Positions 1-10,759 of a stretch of DNA of 10,759 nucleotides are shown here, piece by piece. The notes beneath the pieces are model-generated. The model saw only the letters and a program-made list of their open reading frames with translations, had not been told where the DNA came from and made no database searches. Source of the DNA: a virus (Duplodnaviria; Heunggongvirae; Uroviricota; Caudoviricetes); IMG/VR virus record IMGVR_UViG_2713896834_000012, positions 1 through 10,759 of that record; one strand, 5' to 3'. Made by a program: the position numbers and the translations under genes. Within the stretch, counting starts at the first letter, position 1. The number at the start of each line of letters is the position of its first letter.

Positions 1-192
1 TCAGGAGCATTTCTGATTAACGCCACCGTTAAGAATCCACCCTTCAACAGCTTCACGAAGGTATGATTTGGGGTGGGTTCTGACTGGCTTCGGAAATCCG
101 TGTCGTTTGGTATAGTTCCAGATTGTCTGACGTGATGAAACACCGAGCTTGTTCATCACTTCTTTCTCAGGAATCAGGCTGGTATCGGTCAT
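1..192 (-). CDS. AlpA-family (prophage regulatory / excisionase-like) helix-turn-helix protein, 63 aa
   Basis: Complete minus-strand ORF (ATG at 192-190, stop at 3-1). GGAG Shine-Dalgarno (complement of 200-203) lies 7 nt upstream of the ATG. The pattern KLGVSSRQTIWNYTKRHGFPKPV...AVEGWI matches the AlpA/TorI/Xis winged-HTH signature as I recall it. Family assignment is from memory, not a search. Confidence 0.6.
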   Translation of the reverse strand: MTDTSLIPEKEVMNKLGVSSRQTIWNYTKRHGFPKPVRTHPKSYLREAVEGWILNGGVNQKCS

Positions 193-206
193 CTTAATTC
201 TCCAGG

Positions 207-232
207 CAAAAAGAAACCGCCATCAGGCGGCT
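207..232 (-). terminator. Intrinsic terminator-like hairpin between the zinc-ribbon ORF and the AlpA-like gene
   Basis: On the minus strand: GC stem (plus-strand 217-221 ccgcc pairs with 226-230 ggcgg, 4-nt loop) followed directly by TTTCTTTTT (complement of 207-215). It ends about 15 nt upstream of the AlpA-like start codon. Confidence 0.45.
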
Positions 233-296
233 TGGTGTTCTTTCAGTTCTTCAATTCGAATATTGGTTACATTGTTTTCATATATGAATAAATAAA

Positions 297-476
297 TTAG
301 CTTTTTTCGTTGCCTTCGCGTTCTTTATTAATTTTAACAAACTCGTTTTTACCACGCTCTCCAAATGCGTCTTTAGAGTCGTTGTATCCGCAATCGCAGC
401 ACACATAATCACCAGACCATCCACGCATTGTTTTTTCTTTTGCAATATTTCCAGAACCGCATTCTGGGCAAGACAT
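297..476 (-). CDS. Small zinc-ribbon protein, 59 aa ([59 protein letters not shown])
   Basis: Hand translation of the minus strand: ATG at 476-474, TAA at 299-297. Two zinc knuckles, CPECG and C(C)DCG, spaced about 19 residues apart. AGGT 8 nt upstream as a weak RBS. Below the length cut-off of the supplied ORF track. Function unknown. Confidence 0.45.
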
Positions 477-488
477 ATCACGAACCTG

Positions 489-1070
489 ATGAAAAAACTG
501 GAGACGATAGGATTCGACACCAAAAAAGACCTGCTTATCTCGGTTGGCGATTTGGTCGATCGCGGTACAGAGAACGTCGAATGCCTGGAATTAATCACAT
601 TCCCCTGGTTCAGAGCTGTACGTGGAAACCATGAGCAAATGATGATTGATGGCTTATCAGAGCGCGGAAACGTCAATCACTGGATGCTTAATGGCGGTGG
701 CTGGTTCTTTAATATCGATTACGACAAAGAAATTCTGGCTAAAGATCTTGCCCATAAAGCAGATGAACTTCCGTTAATCATCGAACTGGTGAGCAAAGAT
801 AAAAAATATGTCATCTGCCACGCCGATTATCCTTGTGACGAATACGAATTTGGAAAGCCAGTTGATCATCAGCAGGTAATCTGGAACCGCGAACGAATCA
901 GCAACTCACAAGACGGGATCGTGAAAGAAATTAAAGGCGCGGACACGTTCATCTTTGGTCATACGCCAGCAGTGAAACCACTCAAGTTTGCCAACCAGAT
1001 GTATATAGATACCGGCGCAGTGTTCTGCGGAAACCTCACATTGATTCAGGTACAGGGAGAAGGCGCATGA
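489..1070 (+). CDS. Lambda-type Ser/Thr protein phosphatase (orf221/NinI, PrpA/PrpB family), N-terminally truncated; probably non-functional
   Basis: 193-aa ORF with metallophosphatase motifs GDLVDRG and GNHE and C-terminus ...[13 protein letters not shown], near-identical to the lambda phosphatase as I recall it. The first about 35-40 residues, including the GDxHG metal-binding motif, are missing. The frame is open upstream to 288 but encodes unrelated sequence. Confidence 0.8.
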
Positions 1071-1690
1071 GACTCGAAAGCGTAGCTAAATTTCATTCGC
1101 CAAAAAGCCCGATGATGAGCGACTCACCACGGGCCACGGCTTCTGACTCTCTTTCCGGTACTGATGTGATGGCTGCTATGGGGATGGCGCAATCACAAGC
1201 CGGATTCGGAATGGCTGCATTCTGCGGTAAGCATGAACTCAGCCAGAACGACAAACAAAAGGCTATCAACTATCTGATGCAATTTGCACACAAGGTATCG
1301 GGGAAATACCGTGGTGTGGCAAAGCTCGAAGGAAATACTAAGGCAAAGGTACTGCAAGTGCTCGCAACATTCGCTTATGCGGATTATTGCCGTAGTGCCG
1401 CGACGCCGGGCGCAAGATGCAGAGATTGCCACGGTACAGGCCGTGCGGTTGATATAGCAAAAACAGAGCAGTGGGGGAGAGTTGTTGAGAAAGAGTGCGG
1501 AAGATGCAAAGGTGTCGGCTATTCAAGAATGCCAGCAAGCGCAGCATATCGCGCTGTAACGATTCTAATCCCAAACCTTACTCAACCCACATGGTCACGC
1601 ACTGTTAAGCCGCTGTATGACGCTCTGGTGGTGCAATGCCACAAAGAAGAGTCAATCGCAGACAACATTTTGAATTCGGTCACACGTTAG
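1067..1690 (+). CDS. Q: Late-gene antiterminator Q (lambda Q type), 207 aa
   Basis: Protein [27 protein letters not shown]... matches lambda Q essentially along its full length (from memory). ATGA start/stop overlap with the phosphatase gene. GGGAGAAGG RBS at 1055-1063. Zinc-binding CRDCHGTG...CGRCKG. Confidence 0.93.
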
Positions 1691-1732
1691 CAGCATGATT
1701 GCCACGGATGGCAACATATTAACGGCATGATA

Positions 1733-1761
1733 TTGACTTTTTGAATAAAGTTGGGTAAATT
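1733..1761 (+). promoter_or_regulatory. Late promoter pR' with Q-binding (qut) element
   Basis: -35 TTGACT (1733-1738), 17-nt spacer, -10 TAAATT (1756-1761), about 45 nt after the Q stop. Nearly identical to the lambda pR' TTGACTTATTGAATAAAATTGGGTAAATT as I recall it (2 differences). Confidence 0.7.
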
Positions 1762-1797
1762 TGACCCAACGATGGATAAATGCACTCGTTAAATAAA

Positions 1798-1826
1798 GCC
1801 CTGAGTTAATAGCTCGGGGCTTTTTG
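1798..1826 (+). terminator. Promoter-proximal intrinsic terminator (candidate tR' analogue)
   Basis: 8-bp stem (1798-1805 gccctgag pairs with 1813-1820 ctcggggc, one G-U pair), 7-nt loop, then TTTTT (1821-1825). Lies about 30-58 nt downstream of the predicted pR' start. Confidence 0.45.
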
Positions 1827-1968
1827 CGTTTTAAGCACGGCCTTTCTGAAAGCACATCAAACCAAATACCAGACAGACAAAAATAATCACCTTATCCGCT
1901 GTGGCTACGTTGTGGTGTGCTTTGCATAAAAGAAAACCAGCTCAATGGCTGGCTTCGTGAAAGCGGGT

Positions 1969-2004
1969 GGCAGGAGGTCGCGCTAACAACCTCCTGCCGT
2001 TTTG
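1969..2004 (+). terminator. Conserved GC-rich stem-loop with U-tract, about 120 nt upstream of S
   Basis: ggcaggagg (1969-1977), 12-nt loop, cctcctgcc (1990-1998), then GTTTTG. The same element sits upstream of S in lambda (from memory). Terminator-like, but its function here is not established. Confidence 0.4.
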
Positions 2005-2103
2005 CCCGTGCATATCGGTCACGAACAAATCTGATTGCTAAACACAGTAGCCTGGATTTGTTCTATCAGTAATCGACCTTATTCCTAATTAAATAGAGCA
2101 AAT

Positions 2104-2117
2104 CCCCTTATTGGGGG
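2104..2117 (+). promoter_or_regulatory. sdi-like stem-loop controlling the S107/S105 dual start
   Basis: cccc (2104-2107), ttatt loop, ggggg (2113-2117), immediately upstream of the Met-Lys-Met start of S, as in lambda. Confidence 0.6.
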
Positions 2118-2123
2118 TAAGAC

Positions 2124-2447
2124 ATGAAGATGCCAGAAAAACATGACCTGTTAGCCGCCATTCTCGCGGCAAAGGAACAAGGCATCGGGGCAATCCTTGC
2201 GTTTGCAATGGCGTACCTTCGCGGCAGATATAATGGCGGTGCGTTTACAAAAACAGTAATCGACGCAACGATGTGCGCCATTATCGCCTGGTTCATTCGT
2301 GACCTTCTCGACTTCGCCGGACTAAGTAGCAACCTCGCTTATATAACGAGCGTGTTCATCGGCTACATCGGTACTGACTCGATTGGTTCGCTTATCAAAC
2401 GCTTCGCTGCTAAAAAAGCCGGAGTAGAAGATGGTGGAAATCAATAA
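2124..2447 (+). CDS. S: Holin S (class I; dual start, S107 antiholin at 2124 and S105 holin at 2130)
   Basis: 107-aa protein [39 protein letters not shown]... essentially identical to lambda S (from memory), with three transmembrane segments. Confidence 0.95.
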
Positions 2448-2907
2448 TCAACGTAAGGCGTTCCTCGATATGCTGGCGTGGTCAGAGGGAACTGATAACG
2501 GACGACAGAAAACCAGAAATCATGGTTATGACGTCATTGTTGGCGGAGAGCTATTCACTGATTACTCCGATCACCCTCGCAAACTTGTCACGCTAAACCC
2601 AAAACTCAAATCAACAGCAGCCGGACGTTACCAGCTTCTTTCCCGTTGGTGGGATGCCTACCGCAAGCAGCTTGGACTGAAAGACTTCTCTCCGAAAAGC
2701 CAGGACGCTGTGGCATTGCAGCAGATTAAGGAGCGTGGCGCTTTGCCGATGATTGATCGTGGTGATATTCGTCAGGCAATCGACCGTTGCAGCAATATCT
2801 GGGCTTCACTGCCTGGGGCTGGTTATGGTCAGTTCGAGCATAAGGCTGACAGCCTGATTGCAAAATTCAAAGAAGCAGGGGGAACGGTCAGAGAGATTGA
2901 GGTATGA
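2431..2907 (+). CDS. R: Endolysin R (lytic transglycosylase)
   Basis: 158-aa protein [39 protein letters not shown]... matches lambda R (from memory). Overlaps the 3' end of S by 17 nt. Confidence 0.95.
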
Positions 2908-3341
2908 GCAGAGTCACCGCGATTATCTCCGCTCTGGTTATCTGCATCATCGTCTGTCTGTCATGGGCTGTTAATCATTACCGTGATAACGCCATCGCCT
3001 ATAAAGAACAGCGCGATAAAGCCACGTACATCATCGCTGACATGCAGAAGCGTCAACGTGATGTAGCAGAACTCGACGCCAGATACACAAAGGAGCTTGC
3101 TGATGCTAACGCGACTATCGAAAGTCTCCGTGCTGATGTTTCTGCTGGGCGTAAGCGCCTGCAAGTCGCCGCCACCTGTGCAAGGTCAACGACCAGAGCC
3201 AGCGGCATGGGCGATGGAGAAAGCCCAGGACTTACAGCAGATGCTGAACTCAATTATTACCGTCTCCGAAGTGGAATCGACAAGATAACCGCGCAGGTTA
3301 ACTACCTGCAGGAATACATCAGGATGCAATGCCTGAAATGA
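2904..3341 (+). CDS. Rz: Inner-membrane spanin Rz (i-spanin)
   Basis: ATGA overlap with the R stop. N-terminus [31 protein letters not shown]... is lambda Rz-like with an N-terminal transmembrane helix and predicted coiled coil. The central region diverges from lambda. Confidence 0.85.
3103..3288 (+). CDS. Rz1: Outer-membrane lipoprotein spanin Rz1 (o-spanin), embedded in the +1 frame of Rz
   Basis: AGGAG (3091-3095) 7 nt upstream of ATG 3103. Signal peptide [20 protein letters not shown] with lipobox VSAC, followed by a proline-rich stretch ([13 protein letters not shown]). The track's 3097 start is a TTG in the same frame. Confidence 0.7.
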
Positions 3342-4653: not shown

Positions 4654-5094
4654 ATGGCGCGCCCAACAAAGTATCAAGAGGCGTATGCCGAACAGGCACG
4701 CAAACTGTGCTTGCTGGGCTACACCGATGCAGAGCTTGCTGATTTCTTCGAAGTCAGTGAGTCAACTATTAACAAGTGGAAGCTCGATTATCCTAAGTTT
4801 TCGGAGTCCATAAAAAAGGGTAAGGCCGTCGCTGATGCAGAAGTTAGTGACCGTCTTTATCAACGCGCTATGGGCTTCGTGGCTCCAGACATCGATATTC
4901 GTGTTATTGAAAACAGAATTGTCGAAACTCCGCTTGAGAAGTATTACCCGCCTGATACAACAGCTGCCATCTTCTGGCTTAAGAACCGACAGAAGGATAA
5001 ATGGCGCGACAAGGTTGATCACGAGCTAACAGGCAAAGACGGCGGCGCAATTCAGATTGAAACATCACCGATGAGCACTCTATTCGGAAAATGA
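4654..5094 (+). CDS. Terminase small subunit (HTH DNA-binding), 146 aa
   Basis: N-terminal HTH-like segment (...GYTDAELADFFEVSESTINKWK...). Immediately precedes the large terminase subunit and is translationally coupled to it by an ATGA overlap at 5091-5094. Confidence 0.75.
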   Translation: MARPTKYQEAYAEQARKLCLLGYTDAELADFFEVSESTINKWKLDYPKFSESIKKGKAVADAEVSDRLYQRAMGFVAPDIDIRVIENRIVETPLEKYYPPDTTAAIFWLKNRQKDKWRDKVDHELTGKDGGAIQIETSPMSTLFGK

Positions 5095-6314
5095 CCTCGA
5101 TTAATCCTATCTTTGAACCGTTCATTGAGGCGCATCGCTACAAAGTCGCCAAAGGCGGTCGAGGTAGCGGTAAGTCATGGGCAATTGCTAGGCTGCTTGT
5201 TGAAGCGGCGCGTCGTCAGCCAGTGCGTATTCTCTGCGCTCGTGAACTGCAAAACAGTATCAGCGATTCGGTAATCCGGTTGCTTGAAGATACCATCGAG
5301 CGGGAAGGGTATTCGGCTGAGTTTGAAATTCAGCGTTCAATGATTCGTCATCTCGGTACGAATGCTGAATTCATGTTCTACGGCATCAAAAACAACCCGA
5401 CGAAGATTAAATCGCTCGAAGGCATTGATATCTGCTGGGTGGAAGAAGCGGAAGCGGTAACGAAGGAATCATGGGATATCCTGATACCAACCATCCGCAA
5501 GCCGTTTTCCGAAATATGGGTGAGCTTTAACCCGAAAAACATCCTCGACGATACCTATCAGCGATTCGTCGTAAATCCTCCCGATGATATTTGTCTGCTG
5601 ACAGTGAACTACACCGACAACCCGCACTTTCCTGAAGTTCTCCGTCTGGAGATGGAAGAGTGTAAACGCAGAAATCCGACACTGTATCGTCACATCTGGC
5701 TTGGTGAGCCAGTAAGCGCAAGTGATATGGCAATCATCAAACGTGAATGGCATGAAGCCGCAACCGATGCGCACAAGAAACTCGGATGGAAAGCGAAAGG
5801 CGCTGTTGTCTCTGCGCATGACCCATCAGATACAGGGCCAGATGCTAAAGGTTATGCATCGCGTCACGGTTCGGTAGTTAAGCGCATTGCTGAAGGTCTG
5901 CTGATGGACATCAACGAGGGTGCTGACTGGGCTACTTCGCTGGCGATTGAAGACGGTGCTGACCACTACCTGTGGGATGGCGATGGCGTTGGTGCCGGGC
6001 TACGCAGACAGACAACGGAAGCGTTCTCCGGCAAGAAAATCACCGCCACGATGTTCAAGGGCAGCGAATCGCCATTCGATGAAGATGCTCCGTATCAGGC
6101 CGGAGCATGGGCTGATGAAGTAGTACAGGGCGACAACGTTCGCACTATTGGCGATGTGTTCCGCAATAAGCGAGCGCAATTCTATTACGCGCTGGCTGAC
6201 AGGCTGTATCTAACCTGCAGAAGCTTGGTAAGGTTGCTGATAACGAGACTATTTCAAAACTTCAGTCCTATCGTGATGAGCTTGTTCGCAATGCTGGTCC
6301 AGATGGTCCGGTAA
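5091..6314 (+). CDS. Terminase large subunit (PBSX/Sf6-like family), C-terminally truncated or frame-disrupted; probable pseudogene
   Basis: Walker A motif KGGRGSGKS near the N-terminus, ATPase and RNase-H-like nuclease regions recognisable to about residue 372 (...RAQFYYALADRLYLT). The last about 35 residues (CRSLVRLLITRLFQNFSPIVMSLFAMLVQMVR) look like out-of-frame junk. No portal gene follows. Confidence 0.85.
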   Translation: MTSINPIFEPFIEAHRYKVAKGGRGSGKSWAIARLLVEAARRQPVRILCARELQNSISDSVIRLLEDTIEREGYSAEFEIQRSMIRHLGTNAEFMFYGIKNNPTKIKSLEGIDICWVEEAEAVTKESWDILIPTIRKPFSEIWVSFNPKNILDDTYQRFVVNPPDDICLLTVNYTDNPHFPEVLRLEMEECKRRNPTLYRHIWLGEPVSASDMAIIKREWHEAATDAHKKLGWKAKGAVVSAHDPSDTGPDAKGYASRHGSVVKRIAEGLLMDINEGADWATSLAIEDGADHYLWDGDGVGAGLRRQTTEAFSGKKITATMFKGSESPFDEDAPYQAGAWADEVVQGDNVRTIGDVFRNKRAQFYYALADRLYLTCRSLVRLLITRLFQNFSPIVMSLFAMLVQMVR

Positions 6315-6997
6315 ATCTGGATTTGAAGCAATTAAGCGATCTGCGCAGCCAGTTCAGAATGGACGTGAAGGGTGAGCGACCAGTGTTACCAAACCGTTCC
6401 GATGCTGCCATTCAGCGCGTTTACAAGGCAATGACTGACGATATCAATGGTGCCATTGGTCAGAATCTTGGCAACGATACTCTCCGTAAATATCAGCAGG
6501 CCAATGCCGTCTACGCTGACGAAGCGGCGAAGCTAAAGAATACCAGGCTGAAGAATGTTCTCATGAAAGGCGACCTGACGCCGGAAGTTGTCAACAACAT
6601 GCTATTCAGCAAGAACAAATCGGAAATTAAGACGCTGTATAACTCAGTTGGTCGTGTTGGCAGGGCGCAAATGCGCAATGGCATCATTGGAAAGGCGATG
6701 GAGAAATCTGGCGGATCCCCTGACCAGTTCCTTCGGCAGCTTAACATCCTGCAAAACCAGACTGGCATCACATTTAAGGGGCAGGACGCTGCTTATCTGA
6801 AAGGATTGAAAAAATACCTTCAGTCCACTCAGCAGGCAGCAAAAGCGGCAGTAACAACACCAACAGGGCAGCAAACCATCCCGTTCATTATCGGGTATGG
6901 GACGGCAACGAACCCGGCGACAACTGGCGCAGCAGTAAGCTACGGACTTCTTACTCGCGCCTATGAGAGCGAACCATTCAGAAATGCAATGCTCTGA
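6200..6997 (+). pseudogene. 3' fragment of a virion structural gene (possibly the last ejection/injection protein upstream of the tailspike), lacking its 5' end
   Basis: Frame +2 is open from 6200 (preceded by TGA at 6197-6199) to the stop at 6995-6997, with no ATG until far downstream. The track's 6323 start is a TTG. The translation is Q/N/K/A/G-rich (QAVSNLQKLGKVADNETISKLQSYRDELV...). Gene identity is inferred from synteny only. Confidence 0.4.
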
Positions 6998-7272: not shown

Positions 7273-9453
7273 ATGACAGACATTACAGCCAATGTTGTAG
7301 TAAGCATGCCTTCGCAACTCTTCACTATGGCGCGTTCTTTTAAAGCCGTAGCCAATGGCAAAATTTATATCGGTAAAATTGACACTGACCCAGTAAATCC
7401 TGAAAACCAGATTCAGGTTTATGTGGAGAACGAAGACGGCTCTCACGTTCCTGTTTCGCAACCAATCATCATTAACGCTGCTGGTTACCCTGTATATAAC
7501 GGACAGATTGCCAAATTCGTTACCGTGCAAGGCCATTCTATGGCTGTTTATGACGCGTATGGTGCACAGCAATTCTATTTTCCGAATGTACTTAAGTACG
7601 ACCCTGCCGCACTAAAATATGACTTGGAAGCTCCGTATGGCATGTCGATTATTGGGGAGTTCGAATCGGTAGCGGACTTGCAATCCTTCTCCCAGTTGTC
7701 CCTGATTGATAACGGGGAGAGAGTGTCGGTAAAAAGCTTTCATGCTGGAAGAGGTGTTGGTGGTGGTTATTTCAGATGGTTGGCCACAAGCACGCTGGCT
7801 GATGACGGATTTTCTGTCATCAAACCAACCGCTGTTACTGGTTCCGGGCGATGGGTAAACGTGAAGAGAGGTGCGCTTACTCCACCAGAGTGTGGGGCTG
7901 TTCCTGATGATTCTACTTTCGACAGTGCTACCGGACTTTCAAACTGGGCTACTCAAAACCGCTGCATTGGTAGTCCTGGTGTGTTTAGATCATCAACTGG
8001 GATAGTATTTACAGGCAGTAATCCATGGGTTACTGCCGATCGTATGACGATTGAATATACTGCACCAGAGATTAACGGCGTTATGGTAACCACTAACGAC
8101 CAGACTATATTTCAAGTTGAGGGACTGGAAGTTAAAAACGTTAGTGCGACACCATCTACGGCTGCCGCAACTGCAAATGGATTTAGAATGATTGGGCTTA
8201 AGCAGGCATTTGTTAGGCGCTGCAGAAGCATCGGATGGAAAAATGCAGGGATATTCTTCCAGAGCTGCAGGCAGTGGGAAGCTATTGATAATTTATGCTG
8301 GCTTAATGATTGGGACCTAACCAATACATTTGCCTCCGGTGGGGATATCGTTTCCTACACTGGAACGCCAGGCGCTTCAAAGGGAGGGAAAATAATTGGT
8401 AATTTACTGCTTTCCGATGCAAGCCAAGGAATTAACGTAAACGCACTGTCTGCTGATAGGGAAATCATCATTGCAAATAACACGATCCTTACCTATAACA
8501 CTGATTTCACAACGAAAGATTTCTCTCTCATTAATAAAAGACATGGTATTGAGTTTGGGTACAAAAGTAATCAGACTTACGGAGGCTCGATACTTATTGC
8601 AAACAATATTATTCGTGATACGAACTGGACTGGTATTTACCGTTCTGGTGGAGCGGATGGTTCTGTTTCTTATCCACCATCAATGATTCATGGCAATTTG
8701 ATCCATAACGTTGGTATGAAAATTGATGCATCCAATATCTCTGGTGGTATTCTAATTGGTGATATAGTTGATGGTGACATACTATCTAACAATATTGTTT
8801 CTGGTTTTGGTCAATTATCATCTGGTGCCTATCGGATACAGGATTCGGTTGGAAGCGGTAAGCTCACAATGAACAACAATGTAGACTTTGATAGCAAGGG
8901 GTCAGGTATATACATAACTGGTGAGGCTAATGGTGTGGTTGTTAACGGTCACAGAACTGTCAGAGCTTCAGGTTATAGCGTATTCCTTGCCCCCGTATCA
9001 GGAGCTACAGTTTTTGGCGATCACGTACTAAATAACATCGTGGTTGAAAGGACTACGGATGGTTACGGTGTTGTATTTGCTTCAGGCGCTGCGACAACAA
9101 GCTCTCTGAATAATCTAAATGCAAAAGGAACCTTCACAAACGCCACTACTAACTCAGCTGTATATGTGGCAGGAACACCTTCAAATGCAATAATTATCGG
9201 AGGCGTCATTAAAGGGTTTGCGTATGGAGTCTGGTGTCAGTCTTATGTCGACACTACAATCCAACTTCCATGGGGTGGCATAACCTTCATTGGTACAATA
9301 AATGCTTTCAGGCTGGCAAGGACAACAGGAACCGCAAATGCGTTTGTAAATCCTAATTTTTTCTATGGCGTAACTAATAGATTCTCAAATGGTGGCACAG
9401 GTACCAGTAATGGAGCAGAAAGATTATTGGTTAATGGGGCTGTTGTGGCATAA
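7273..9453 (+). CDS. Tailspike protein: P22-type N-terminal head-binding domain plus right-handed beta-helix receptor-binding (probable glycanase) domain, 726 aa
   Basis: N-terminus [13 protein letters not shown]...[27 protein letters not shown]...[13 protein letters not shown]...NVLKYDP matches the P22/Sf6/HK620 tailspike head-binding domain (from memory). The remainder has beta-helix-like repeats ([29 protein letters not shown]). GGAG RBS 8 nt upstream. Confidence 0.9.
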
Positions 9454-9475: not shown

Positions 9476-10759
9476 CATAAGCGCTAACTTAAGGGTTGAA
9501 CCATCTGAAGAATGCGACGCCTCGGTGCCTCGTTAAGACGATGCCTCGCGTTCTTCAATTGCGTTTTGTAGGCTGTCAGGGATACTGTCCCACGAATGGC
9601 CACCTGTAAGCTCCAGATGACCATTTTTGTTATTCTCCACAACGAGTTAGTTCTTCTTTTCGGATCCGGCACTTCTGGGGGGGAAATCCAGCGATGGCTG
9701 GATTATGTCGTCAATTAAAAATGCGGCGAGTAGATTAGCAAATATCCACGCTTTCGCGAGTTCAGGTTCCTTTGCACGCAAAGCATCCAGGTGCAGCAAA
9801 CTTTTGAGCCGCTTAAAAGCCAGTTCAATTTGCCATCGCAGACGGTAACAATCAGCCACTTGCTCTGCTGAATATTCATCTTCCGGTAATGATGTTAGCA
9901 ATAGCACATGGCCCGCTGCTTCCAGCGTTTCCGCCTGAACTACTCGTCCTTTTCGACGATTCTCGCTGAGCAGTCGGGTTTTACTGATTAATGCTTTTTC
10001 GGGAGGAAGTGATACGGCAATGAGACGTGCCGGAAAGGGAGCTCCGGCTTTTTTATTACCTGAATTGCCTATCATTACAGTGGTTTCACCGTTCTTACCG
10101 CAATCCAGCCCGCGCAGAAAACCCATCATGTCAAAGCGCATTCCTTCTGCAGTTAACCAGCGCAATCCTCGCCAGTGAACCCGGACGATATAATCAGCTT
10201 CTCCAAAAGCAAGTGAGCGGATACATTCGGGACGCGAACCGAATCCCCGGTCAGCAATGCGTATCTCGTCTGCCGTTTGCGCAAATCGGTCCAGCCGTTC
10301 AGCGTCTCTGCTGTCGGTTAGCTCAAAATCAGTGAACTGACAGGTATGAGGATCATATCCCATATGTAGTCGCCATTCAGCGCTGCCGCCCCCGGGCGCA
10401 CTGATTGCTGTTCCATCGACAAGACGCAATCTCTTTCCGCTTGTACAACCCGTAACTGCGGCGCGTACAGCAAGTGTTTGTGCGGCAAGTATGCCAAACC
10501 AGTCGGCGGCATTCCGCAGCCGCTTCAGGAGAGCCACGTCAGATAATGTTGCAACGTCATGGAGCTGAGCCCATGCAGTGACTTCACGTAATGACATCCC
10601 CCCGGGGCCGTAAGCCAGCCCCAGACGTAGCAGAGTTGCAGCATCACGAATTTCGCGGCGGCGGGTTAGAGCCCCGGCATTACGTGCCGAAGTATCCAGT
10701 TCTTCGGGCTTACCAATATGGGCCAGAATTGCTGACCAGTTATCGTGAGAGTAATTCAT
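9476..10759 (-). mobile_element. IS186 (IS4 family), partial; the far end lies beyond the window
   Basis: Terminal inverted repeat CATAAGCGCTAACTTAAGGGTTG begins at about 9476. It is flanked by GGGGGGTGTCACCCC (9462-9476), the G-run/C-run target type IS186 is known to prefer. Contains the complete insL-type transposase. Boundary is accurate to about 1 nt. Confidence 0.9.
9647..10759 (-). CDS. insL: IS186 transposase (IS4 family, DDE), 370 aa
   Basis: Protein MNYSHDNWSAILAHIGKPEELDTSARNAG... with the IS4-family motif YRLRWQIELAFKRLK. The start codon is the last 3 nt of the window (10759-10757), stop at 9649-9647. Confidence 0.95.
   Translation of the reverse strand: MNYSHDNWSAILAHIGKPEELDTSARNAGALTRRREIRDAATLLRLGLAYGPGGMSLREVTAWAQLHDVATLSDVALLKRLRNAADWFGILAAQTLAVRAAVTGCTSGKRLRLVDGTAISAPGGGSAEWRLHMGYDPHTCQFTDFELTDSRDAERLDRFAQTADEIRIADRGFGSRPECIRSLAFGEADYIVRVHWRGLRWLTAEGMRFDMMGFLRGLDCGKNGETTVMIGNSGNKKAGAPFPARLIAVSLPPEKALISKTRLLSENRRKGRVVQAETLEAAGHVLLLTSLPEDEYSAEQVADCYRLRWQIELAFKRLKSLLHLDALRAKEPELAKAWIFANLLAAFLIDDIIQPSLDFPPRSAGSEKKN

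Follow-up and report, generated by a model that had tools for sequence, protein, structure and literature searches.

The left end of the window (the whole stretch of DNA that was analysed, 10,759 bases) and the truncated phosphatase gene that follows it, that is, bases 1-488 together with what is left of ninI, very probably represent a scar left by a single large deletion inside a P22-like prophage (Lederbergvirus, Sf101-like), now defective, that resides at sbcB of Escherichia coli. The window is E. coli chromosome and is 100% identical to strain MB1 (NZ_CP073994.1 1829186-1839944), with which it is collinear over all 10,759 bases. The features that bear on the deletion are as follows, in window coordinates.

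1-20, plus strand: last 20 bases of the integrase gene (int), annotated in RefSeq as a tyrosine recombinase (L012 2342-3520) and ending at window base 20
1-192, minus strand: gene for a 63-aa helix-turn-helix protein, AlpA-like, a candidate excisionase (recombination directionality factor) of the sbcB-type module, from the open reading frame (ORF) and PHROG 66
213-270, both strands: conserved linker of approximately 58 bp with a GC-rich hairpin (214-233), from terminator-like sites and the P22 and HK140 annotation
297-476, minus strand: eaG, encoding a 59-aa zinc-ribbon protein of the distal early-left (pL) operon of P22-like phages, from DNA identity and PHROG 2945
479-481, no strand: deletion junction, CAC, three bases common to both parental sequences
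479-1070, plus strand: ninI, 5'-truncated, a lambda-type Ser/Thr phosphatase pseudogene without codons 1-25, from DNA homology, the 1g5b alignment and PGAP
1067-1690, plus strand: Q antiterminator gene, lambda-type, intact, 207 aa, the nearest complete gene on the right of the scar, from the ORF, annotation and Pfam Antiterm

The observed junction is confirmed to be real. Homology of the eaG type, to P22, HK620, HK629 and Sf101, stops at window base 481, and DNA homology to ninI and Q opens at 479 and extends to 1100 with 96-99% identity in 242/242 matching phage records, which include lambda, HK544, mEp234 and Sf101 and were drawn from a searched database of 50,697 records. An earlier sequence-only reading of this DNA had placed a recombination junction near 480, with phosphatase homology beginning at about 480-490, and had suggested locating the breakpoint against uninterrupted phage alleles of the phosphatase; the 242 records agree with both placements and set the ninI-side start at 479. 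Base-by-base comparison with Sf101, P22 and HK620 gave ...CATATCAC/TACCTCC for the eaG-side parents, where the slash marks the break, and ...GATGCTACAC/GAACCTG for the ninI-side parent, and the window reads CATATCACGAACCTG across the junction. In a longer alignment, the eaG parents read ...GACATATCAC/TACCTCCAAAGC, the ninI parent reads ...GGATGCTACAC/GAACCTGATGAAC and the window reads GACATATCACGAACCTGATGAAA. Since the parents have only CAC in common, the join is illegitimate and of microhomology level rather than a homologous exchange, the 3-bp microhomology being by itself too short to carry statistical weight. The break lies 5 bp upstream of the eaG ATG on one side and at codon 25/26 of ninI on the other. 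Bases 1-1100, including the junction, are present at 100% identity in 50 complete E. coli genomes, and the same junction occurs in four further assemblies; it is not an assembly artefact.

Extension to the left in matching genomes leads into the integrase gene on the plus strand, immediately left of the 63-aa gene, and then into chromosomal sbcB. An integrase gene upstream was what the sequence-only reading had proposed to look for, and the finding that it named as contrary to its view, an ordinary nin region continuing on the minus strand, is not seen, the DNA left of int being the sbcB chromosome. The int and AlpA-like genes are convergent and overlap by 20 bp in E. coli, Sf101 and HK140, and the same convergent pair is found in the complete phages HK140 and APC_JM3.2. 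Owing to this convergent overlap (L012 2342-3692), any transcript of int would, at its 3' end, run antisense to the putative excisionase gene. In strains MB1 and KBN10P04869, int contains an internal stop; in CP050221 it is intact (392 aa; Arm-DNA-bind_3 and Phage_integrase domains; L010 10457-11635), so that some carriers of the junction might still be able to excise the remnant.

Both minus-strand ORFs that had been read from the letters are present, at 1-192 (63 aa) and 297-476 (59 aa, a four-cysteine zinc ribbon). The assignment of the 63-aa protein as AlpA-like is probably right as well, in the sense of an AlpA/excisionase-like helix-turn-helix protein: it matches PHROG 66, 'excisionase and transcriptional regulator', at E = 1.9e-8, with a score of 17.8 bits against Pfam Phage_AlpA (PF05930), below the 21-bit cut-off, and no match to NCBIfam models. 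A single-sequence AlphaFold2 model of the protein (mean pLDDT 59.6, pTM 0.34) was too poor for fold comparison. The DNA of its gene is 99.6% identical to HK140 and 97% identical to Sf101, the annotation there being an AlpA family regulator beside int. From this family annotation and the position of the gene, we regard the protein as a candidate excisionase; the Sf101 paper (PMC4159516) makes no mention of 'excisionase' or 'xis'.

The DNA over 203/207-481, which includes eaG, is 96-98% identical to P22, HK620, Sf101 and HK629, and for P22 the match over 207-481 takes in eaG together with its downstream hairpin at 96.4% identity. The 59-aa product matches PHROG 2945 (EaG) at E = 8e-31 and gives weak zinc-ribbon and Lar-like matches. 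In P22, HK620 and Sf101 the eaG ATG is preceded by GGAGGTA (TACCTCC on the plus strand), which has been replaced in the window: the eaG coding sequence is intact, and its Shine-Dalgarno sequence and all upstream DNA are lost. The arrangement of P22 itself is int-xis-eaC-eaG, in which int and xis are co-oriented with eaG and the integrase is of a different family, whereas the int found here is inverted, convergent with the AlpA-like gene.

Between these two gene modules, the linker at 213-270 is identical in P22, HK140 and the eaG-proximal Sf101 copy, and it is also found in HK620. Its hairpin is annotated as a terminator in HK140 and in P22, where it ends the aI RNA, and on the plus strand this same hairpin is the first one downstream of int. 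The fold at 214-233 has an energy of -14.5 kcal/mol on the minus strand, with no excess of stability over shuffled sequence (z scores of -1.7 and -0.9 for the minus and plus strands, respectively); the case for a terminator is therefore made by conservation and by the P22 and HK140 annotation, not by energy. The linker, at which the int/AlpA and eaG modules meet, is a mosaic joint of the ordinary kind, and with its hairpin it has the look of a joint at which mosaic recombination recurs. A GenBank note on L06296 states that a 60-bp stretch under the linker match is identical to lambda 29106-29165. Sf101 has two related copies of the hairpin (L002 2270-2300 and 2580-2640), which flank an extra 312-bp segment missing from the window. 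A scan of the whole window with Rfam at gathering thresholds returned no RNA family.

The chromosomal setting identifies the element to which this arm belongs. Sf101 (a Shigella/Enterobacteria phage; Lederbergvirus; NC_027398) integrates in the 5' end of sbcB (Jakhetia et al. 2014, PMC4159516), and a 13-bp att core, CGTAATCGTGAAA, has been published for Sf101 and phage 2851, both of which integrate at sbcB (PMC4159516). A single copy of this core lies in sbcB, at its 5' end, 1.4 kb to the left of the window (L012 2115-2127; L001 13615-13627), and another single copy approximately 20.8 kb rightward, just before dacD (L011 8771-8783). Directly outside the cores lie yeeD/E-sbcB on one side and dacD-sbmC-yeeA on the other, and no chromosomal DNA is present between the two prophage arms; sbcB and dacD are presumably adjacent in E. 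coli K-12. The genes of the remnant thus stand in phage order, with matching att sites on either side, at a site known to be used by phages. No att core was found at the junction or elsewhere in the window, whose best match (914-926, 2 mismatches) is no better than chance would give.

We propose that the ancestral prophage carried, in order, attL, int, the AlpA-like xis, the terminator, eaG, the remaining part of the leftward pL operon, N, repressor, cro, cII, replication genes, nin genes, ninI, Q, lysis genes, terminase, head/tail genes, tailspike, O-antigen acyltransferase and attR. Illegitimate recombination at CAC would have fused codon 25/26 of ninI to the DNA lying just ahead of the eaG start, with replication slippage or end-joining at the microhomology as the mechanism that we infer. 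Approximately 14 kb would have been lost in this way, which on the Sf101 map would be L002 2853-16826 (13,974 bp, 33 genes), comprising gp21-gp53 and the first 25 codons of gp54 (ninI). The lost genes would include ead/Ea22-like, abc2, erf, kil, cIII, ral, N, repressor, cro, cII, the replication genes and ninA to ninH. Sf101 has int(+), AlpA(-), eaG(-), 33 further genes, ninI(+) and Q(+) in this same order and orientation, and removal of L002 2853-16826 from it leaves genes ordered and oriented as in the window.

Such a deletion would have three consequences. Without ribosome-binding site, start codon and the motif I sequence GDLHG, ninI would be a dead pseudogene, and eaG would keep its coding sequence and lose its Shine-Dalgarno sequence and the pL promoter. 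A prophage that lacks immunity, N, replication and the pR promoter would be capable neither of induction nor of replication, nor would Q be transcribed from pR.

The likeness to Sf101 includes the sbcB site, the 13-bp att core, the convergent int/AlpA-like pair followed by eaG, the lambda-type ninI-Q-S-R-Rz, the P22-type virion genes and the O-antigen acyltransferase beside att. Sf101 differs in being a complete, inducible, 38.7-kb phage; the remnant differs in being without the 13,974-bp segment, without the 312-bp insert between the terminator copies and without most head/tail genes, and in bearing insertion sequence (IS) elements.

It is very unlikely that two lambdoid prophages recombined here, one giving attL-int-AlpA-eaG and the other ninI-Q-lysis and onward. 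Such an origin is suggested by the best relatives, which differ along the sequence (HK140/Sf101 over 1-270, P22/HK620 over 203-481, HK544/mEp234 over 479-1100), and most junction-bearing genomes hold a second ninI-like place elsewhere, a potential partner. However, differing relatives are expected from lambdoid mosaicism, and Sf101 alone holds all three modules in order. Moreover, the 3 bp of identity at the junction speaks against homologous exchange between shared genes, the same 13-mer stands at both att ends directly between sbcB and dacD, and an exchange between different loci would have deleted or inverted chromosome, of which nothing is seen between the arms. One internal deletion accounts for the order, the orientation and both att ends, so that a second prophage is not needed. 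The 'prophage-prophage recombination scar' offered as one option in the sequence-only reading was therefore close in spirit, in that the scar is real, and went too far in calling for a second prophage.

The relatives do limit how closely the single deletion can be drawn. The closest relatives differ by arm, with ninI-Q nearest to HK544 (98.9%; Sf101 96.9%) and int-AlpA nearest to HK140 (99.6%; Sf101 97%). An undeleted sister prophage was sought through contigs encoding identical EaG; the 26 contigs obtained amounted to 5 places, none of them undeleted. All five lie beside sbcB; the junction is shared by the four that were aligned, and the gene order by the fifth. Because the ancestor is pieced together from mosaic relatives, no undeleted sister with near-identical arms having been recovered, both the extent of the lost segment and its gene content are approximate.

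In the searches made, the eaG/ninI junction is confined to closely related E. coli genomes (50 complete). At least 80% of the window is present in 45 complete genomes, most of them with an extra IS100; in KBN10P04869, IS100 lies inside the tailspike gene, and that genome is accordingly not collinear with the whole window. The junction is the same in assemblies without IS100 or with intact int, CP050221 being both free of IS100 and intact in int, which indicates that the deletion is older than those changes. CP169139 (L008 1-10000) has the same eaG/ninI junction, but unrelated island genes occur within approximately 1.5-2.5 kb of it, namely those for an AlpA PF05930 protein, Hha and a YfjJ-like protein, with IS110, in place of the Q, lysis and terminase genes. 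This replacement points to further rearrangement of the remnant.

Decay is evident in the remainder of the prophage as well. The immunity, replication and morphogenesis modules are lost, and no gene lies between eaG and ninI. A second internal deletion, at 6207-6214, has fused the terminase large subunit to a P22-gp16-like gene (ORFs 5091-6314 and 6323-6997): homology to terminase large subunits (CUS-3, HK620 and others) runs to 6214 and that to P22-gp16/Sf6-gp13 begins at 6207, with an 8-bp overlap. The remnant has no portal, scaffold or coat gene and lacks most of the tail and ejection genes. IS100, IS421, IS66 and IS3 are inserted in the prophage, IS100 in most relatives. The IS421 (IS4-like) transposase gene follows the tailspike gene in the window (9647-10759, minus strand). 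The tailspike ORF of 726 aa (7273-9453) is intact in the window, and in most related genomes IS100 splits the tailspike gene near 7380-7415. Holin, endolysin and Rz are intact alongside Q (1067-3341), and a pR'-like promoter, TTGACT-17-TAAATT, is located at 1733-1761, with a strong terminator at 1795-1823. Between IS66 and attR, at the position of oacB in Sf101, lie an acyltransferase and a GDSL esterase (L011 4758-6518), which may be different serotype-modifying cargo.

That the remnant is a maintained, domesticated element rather than debris is, in our judgement, highly improbable. The retained parts relevant to domestication are both att cores, the AlpA-like gene, the Q-pR'-S-R-Rz cassette, the 726-aa tailspike, the O-antigen acyltransferase and, in some strains, an intact integrase. 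Transcription of truncated ninI and Q on the plus strand can come only from int, which faces inward, by read-through of the hairpin at 214-233, and int expression could thereby be newly coupled to host lysis or excision.

The sequence-only reading had also entertained the edge of a small element integrated in the nin region, in which a P4-like satellite or PICI-type island, bringing an integrase and an AlpA regulator of its own, would have inserted in ninI and displaced the 5' end of the gene. AlpA-type regulators are typical of P4-like and PICI-type islands, and integrase and AlpA-like genes do lie directly leftward, but the proposal is scarcely plausible. The left boundary of the int block is chromosome (sbcB) rather than nin DNA, and the att cores enclose the entire 20.8-kb remnant, one at sbcB and one approximately 20.8 kb farther right, with none at 479-481. 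The left breakpoint, 5 bp upstream of the eaG start, is inside a normal P22-type operon and is not the end of an element, and the int/AlpA module is that of two complete phages, Sf101 and HK140. Displaced 5' ninI sequence does not occur in the 46 kb of flanking DNA searched (L001 and L011), and the direct repeats that the sequence-only reading had proposed to look for do not flank bases 1-478. A satellite, PICI or P4-like island should have its own att repeats at the insertion point and its target gene on both sides, and neither was found.

Base composition does not alter this assessment. The hand-counted GC values of the earlier reading were right (35.0% over 301-360 and 48.3% over 5101-5160), and its term 'AT-rich module' suits bases 193-478 (38.1%) and is overstated for the 63-aa gene at 1-192 (46.9%). 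GC content is 41.6% over 1-478 versus 47.9% in the rest of the window, and approximately 6% of all 478-bp stretches are as low as 1-478, for example 8401-8900 at 36-38%. The GC dip at 193-478 is inside the normal range of the window, and we rejected it as evidence of foreign origin. As eaG is simply an AT-rich phage gene, composition is silent on a foreign insertion.

On the other side of the junction, the product of truncated ninI is, as judged from its sequence, almost certainly inactive. The first usable start is Met29 at 489, and the 193-aa ORF that begins there (489-1070) aligns end to end with residues 29-221 of the lambda phosphatase (PDB 1g5b) at E = 7e-127 and is approximately 95% identical to it across those residues. 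Because the alignment opens at residue 29, residues 1-28 are absent, including G19-D-L-H-G23 of motif I, whose metal ligands we take to be Asp20 and His22 (1g5b structure). Motif I (GDxHG) is thus missing from the ORF, whereas motifs II (GDLVDRG) and III (GNHE; RGNHE) are kept and shared with the lambda enzyme (NinI, ORF221). The ORF scores 38.6 bits against Pfam Metallophos, above the 21.5-bit cut-off, 223 bits against NCBIfam PRK11439 (cut-off 326 bits; model positions 33-218 only) and 195 bits against NCBIfam PRK09968 (cut-off 332). The PGAP/RefSeq label is that of a partial pseudogene, 'incomplete; missing N-terminus'. These results accord with the earlier expectation that loss of GDxHG probably inactivates the enzyme.

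It had also been noted that the phosphatase frame is open upstream to 288 and encodes unrelated sequence there; the frame indeed runs back to a TGA at 285-287, and the upstream part is antisense eaG. No ATG, GTG or TTG start codon was found in this frame between 288 and 489, no Shine-Dalgarno-like sequence is present before ATG 489 (sequence ATCACGAACCTGATG), and no promoter-like site was found upstream of truncated ninI in the antisense-eaG region. All 242 phage homologues run on upstream into full-length ninI, where homologues starting at the Met at 489 would have contradicted the reading of a truncation. Against this background it is barely credible that the 193-aa ORF is a genuinely expressed short phosphatase, or a non-catalytic pseudo-phosphatase made from Met29, even though its 193 codons are intact with motifs II and III preserved and at least 50 genomes have stably inherited the junction: motif I with Asp20 and His22 is gone, neither Shine-Dalgarno-like sequence nor promoter-like site precedes it, and full-length homologues, sub-cut-off NCBIfam scores and the PGAP pseudogene call all stand against it.

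Cryptic prophages of E. coli K-12, such as DLP12, Rac and Qin, have kept int/xis and Q-lysis and have lost immunity, replication and morphogenesis via deletions and IS elements. They resemble the present remnant as grounded prophages and differ from it in integration site and breakpoints. IS-disrupted Sf101-like remnants at sbcB have been reported in Shigella flexneri genomes (PMC4159516); these too are grounded, as is this prophage, and their specific breakpoints differ. Decayed Sf101-like prophages at sbcB are therefore already known, having been described for Shigella (PMC4159516).

In summary, the scar is ordinary cryptic-prophage decay, the consequences of which are already in the RefSeq annotation. 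It matters little beyond annotation, in which the phosphatase ORF is to be treated as a pseudogene and the int/AlpA/eaG block is to be assigned to the left arm of a grounded prophage of the Sf101 type at sbcB and to no satellite or island. As a clonal marker, the 3-bp junction conveniently identifies the E. coli lineage in which it occurs, and the remnant adds one more case of microhomology-mediated decay of a lambdoid prophage, in which immunity and replication are out and Q-lysis and the tailspike remain intact.
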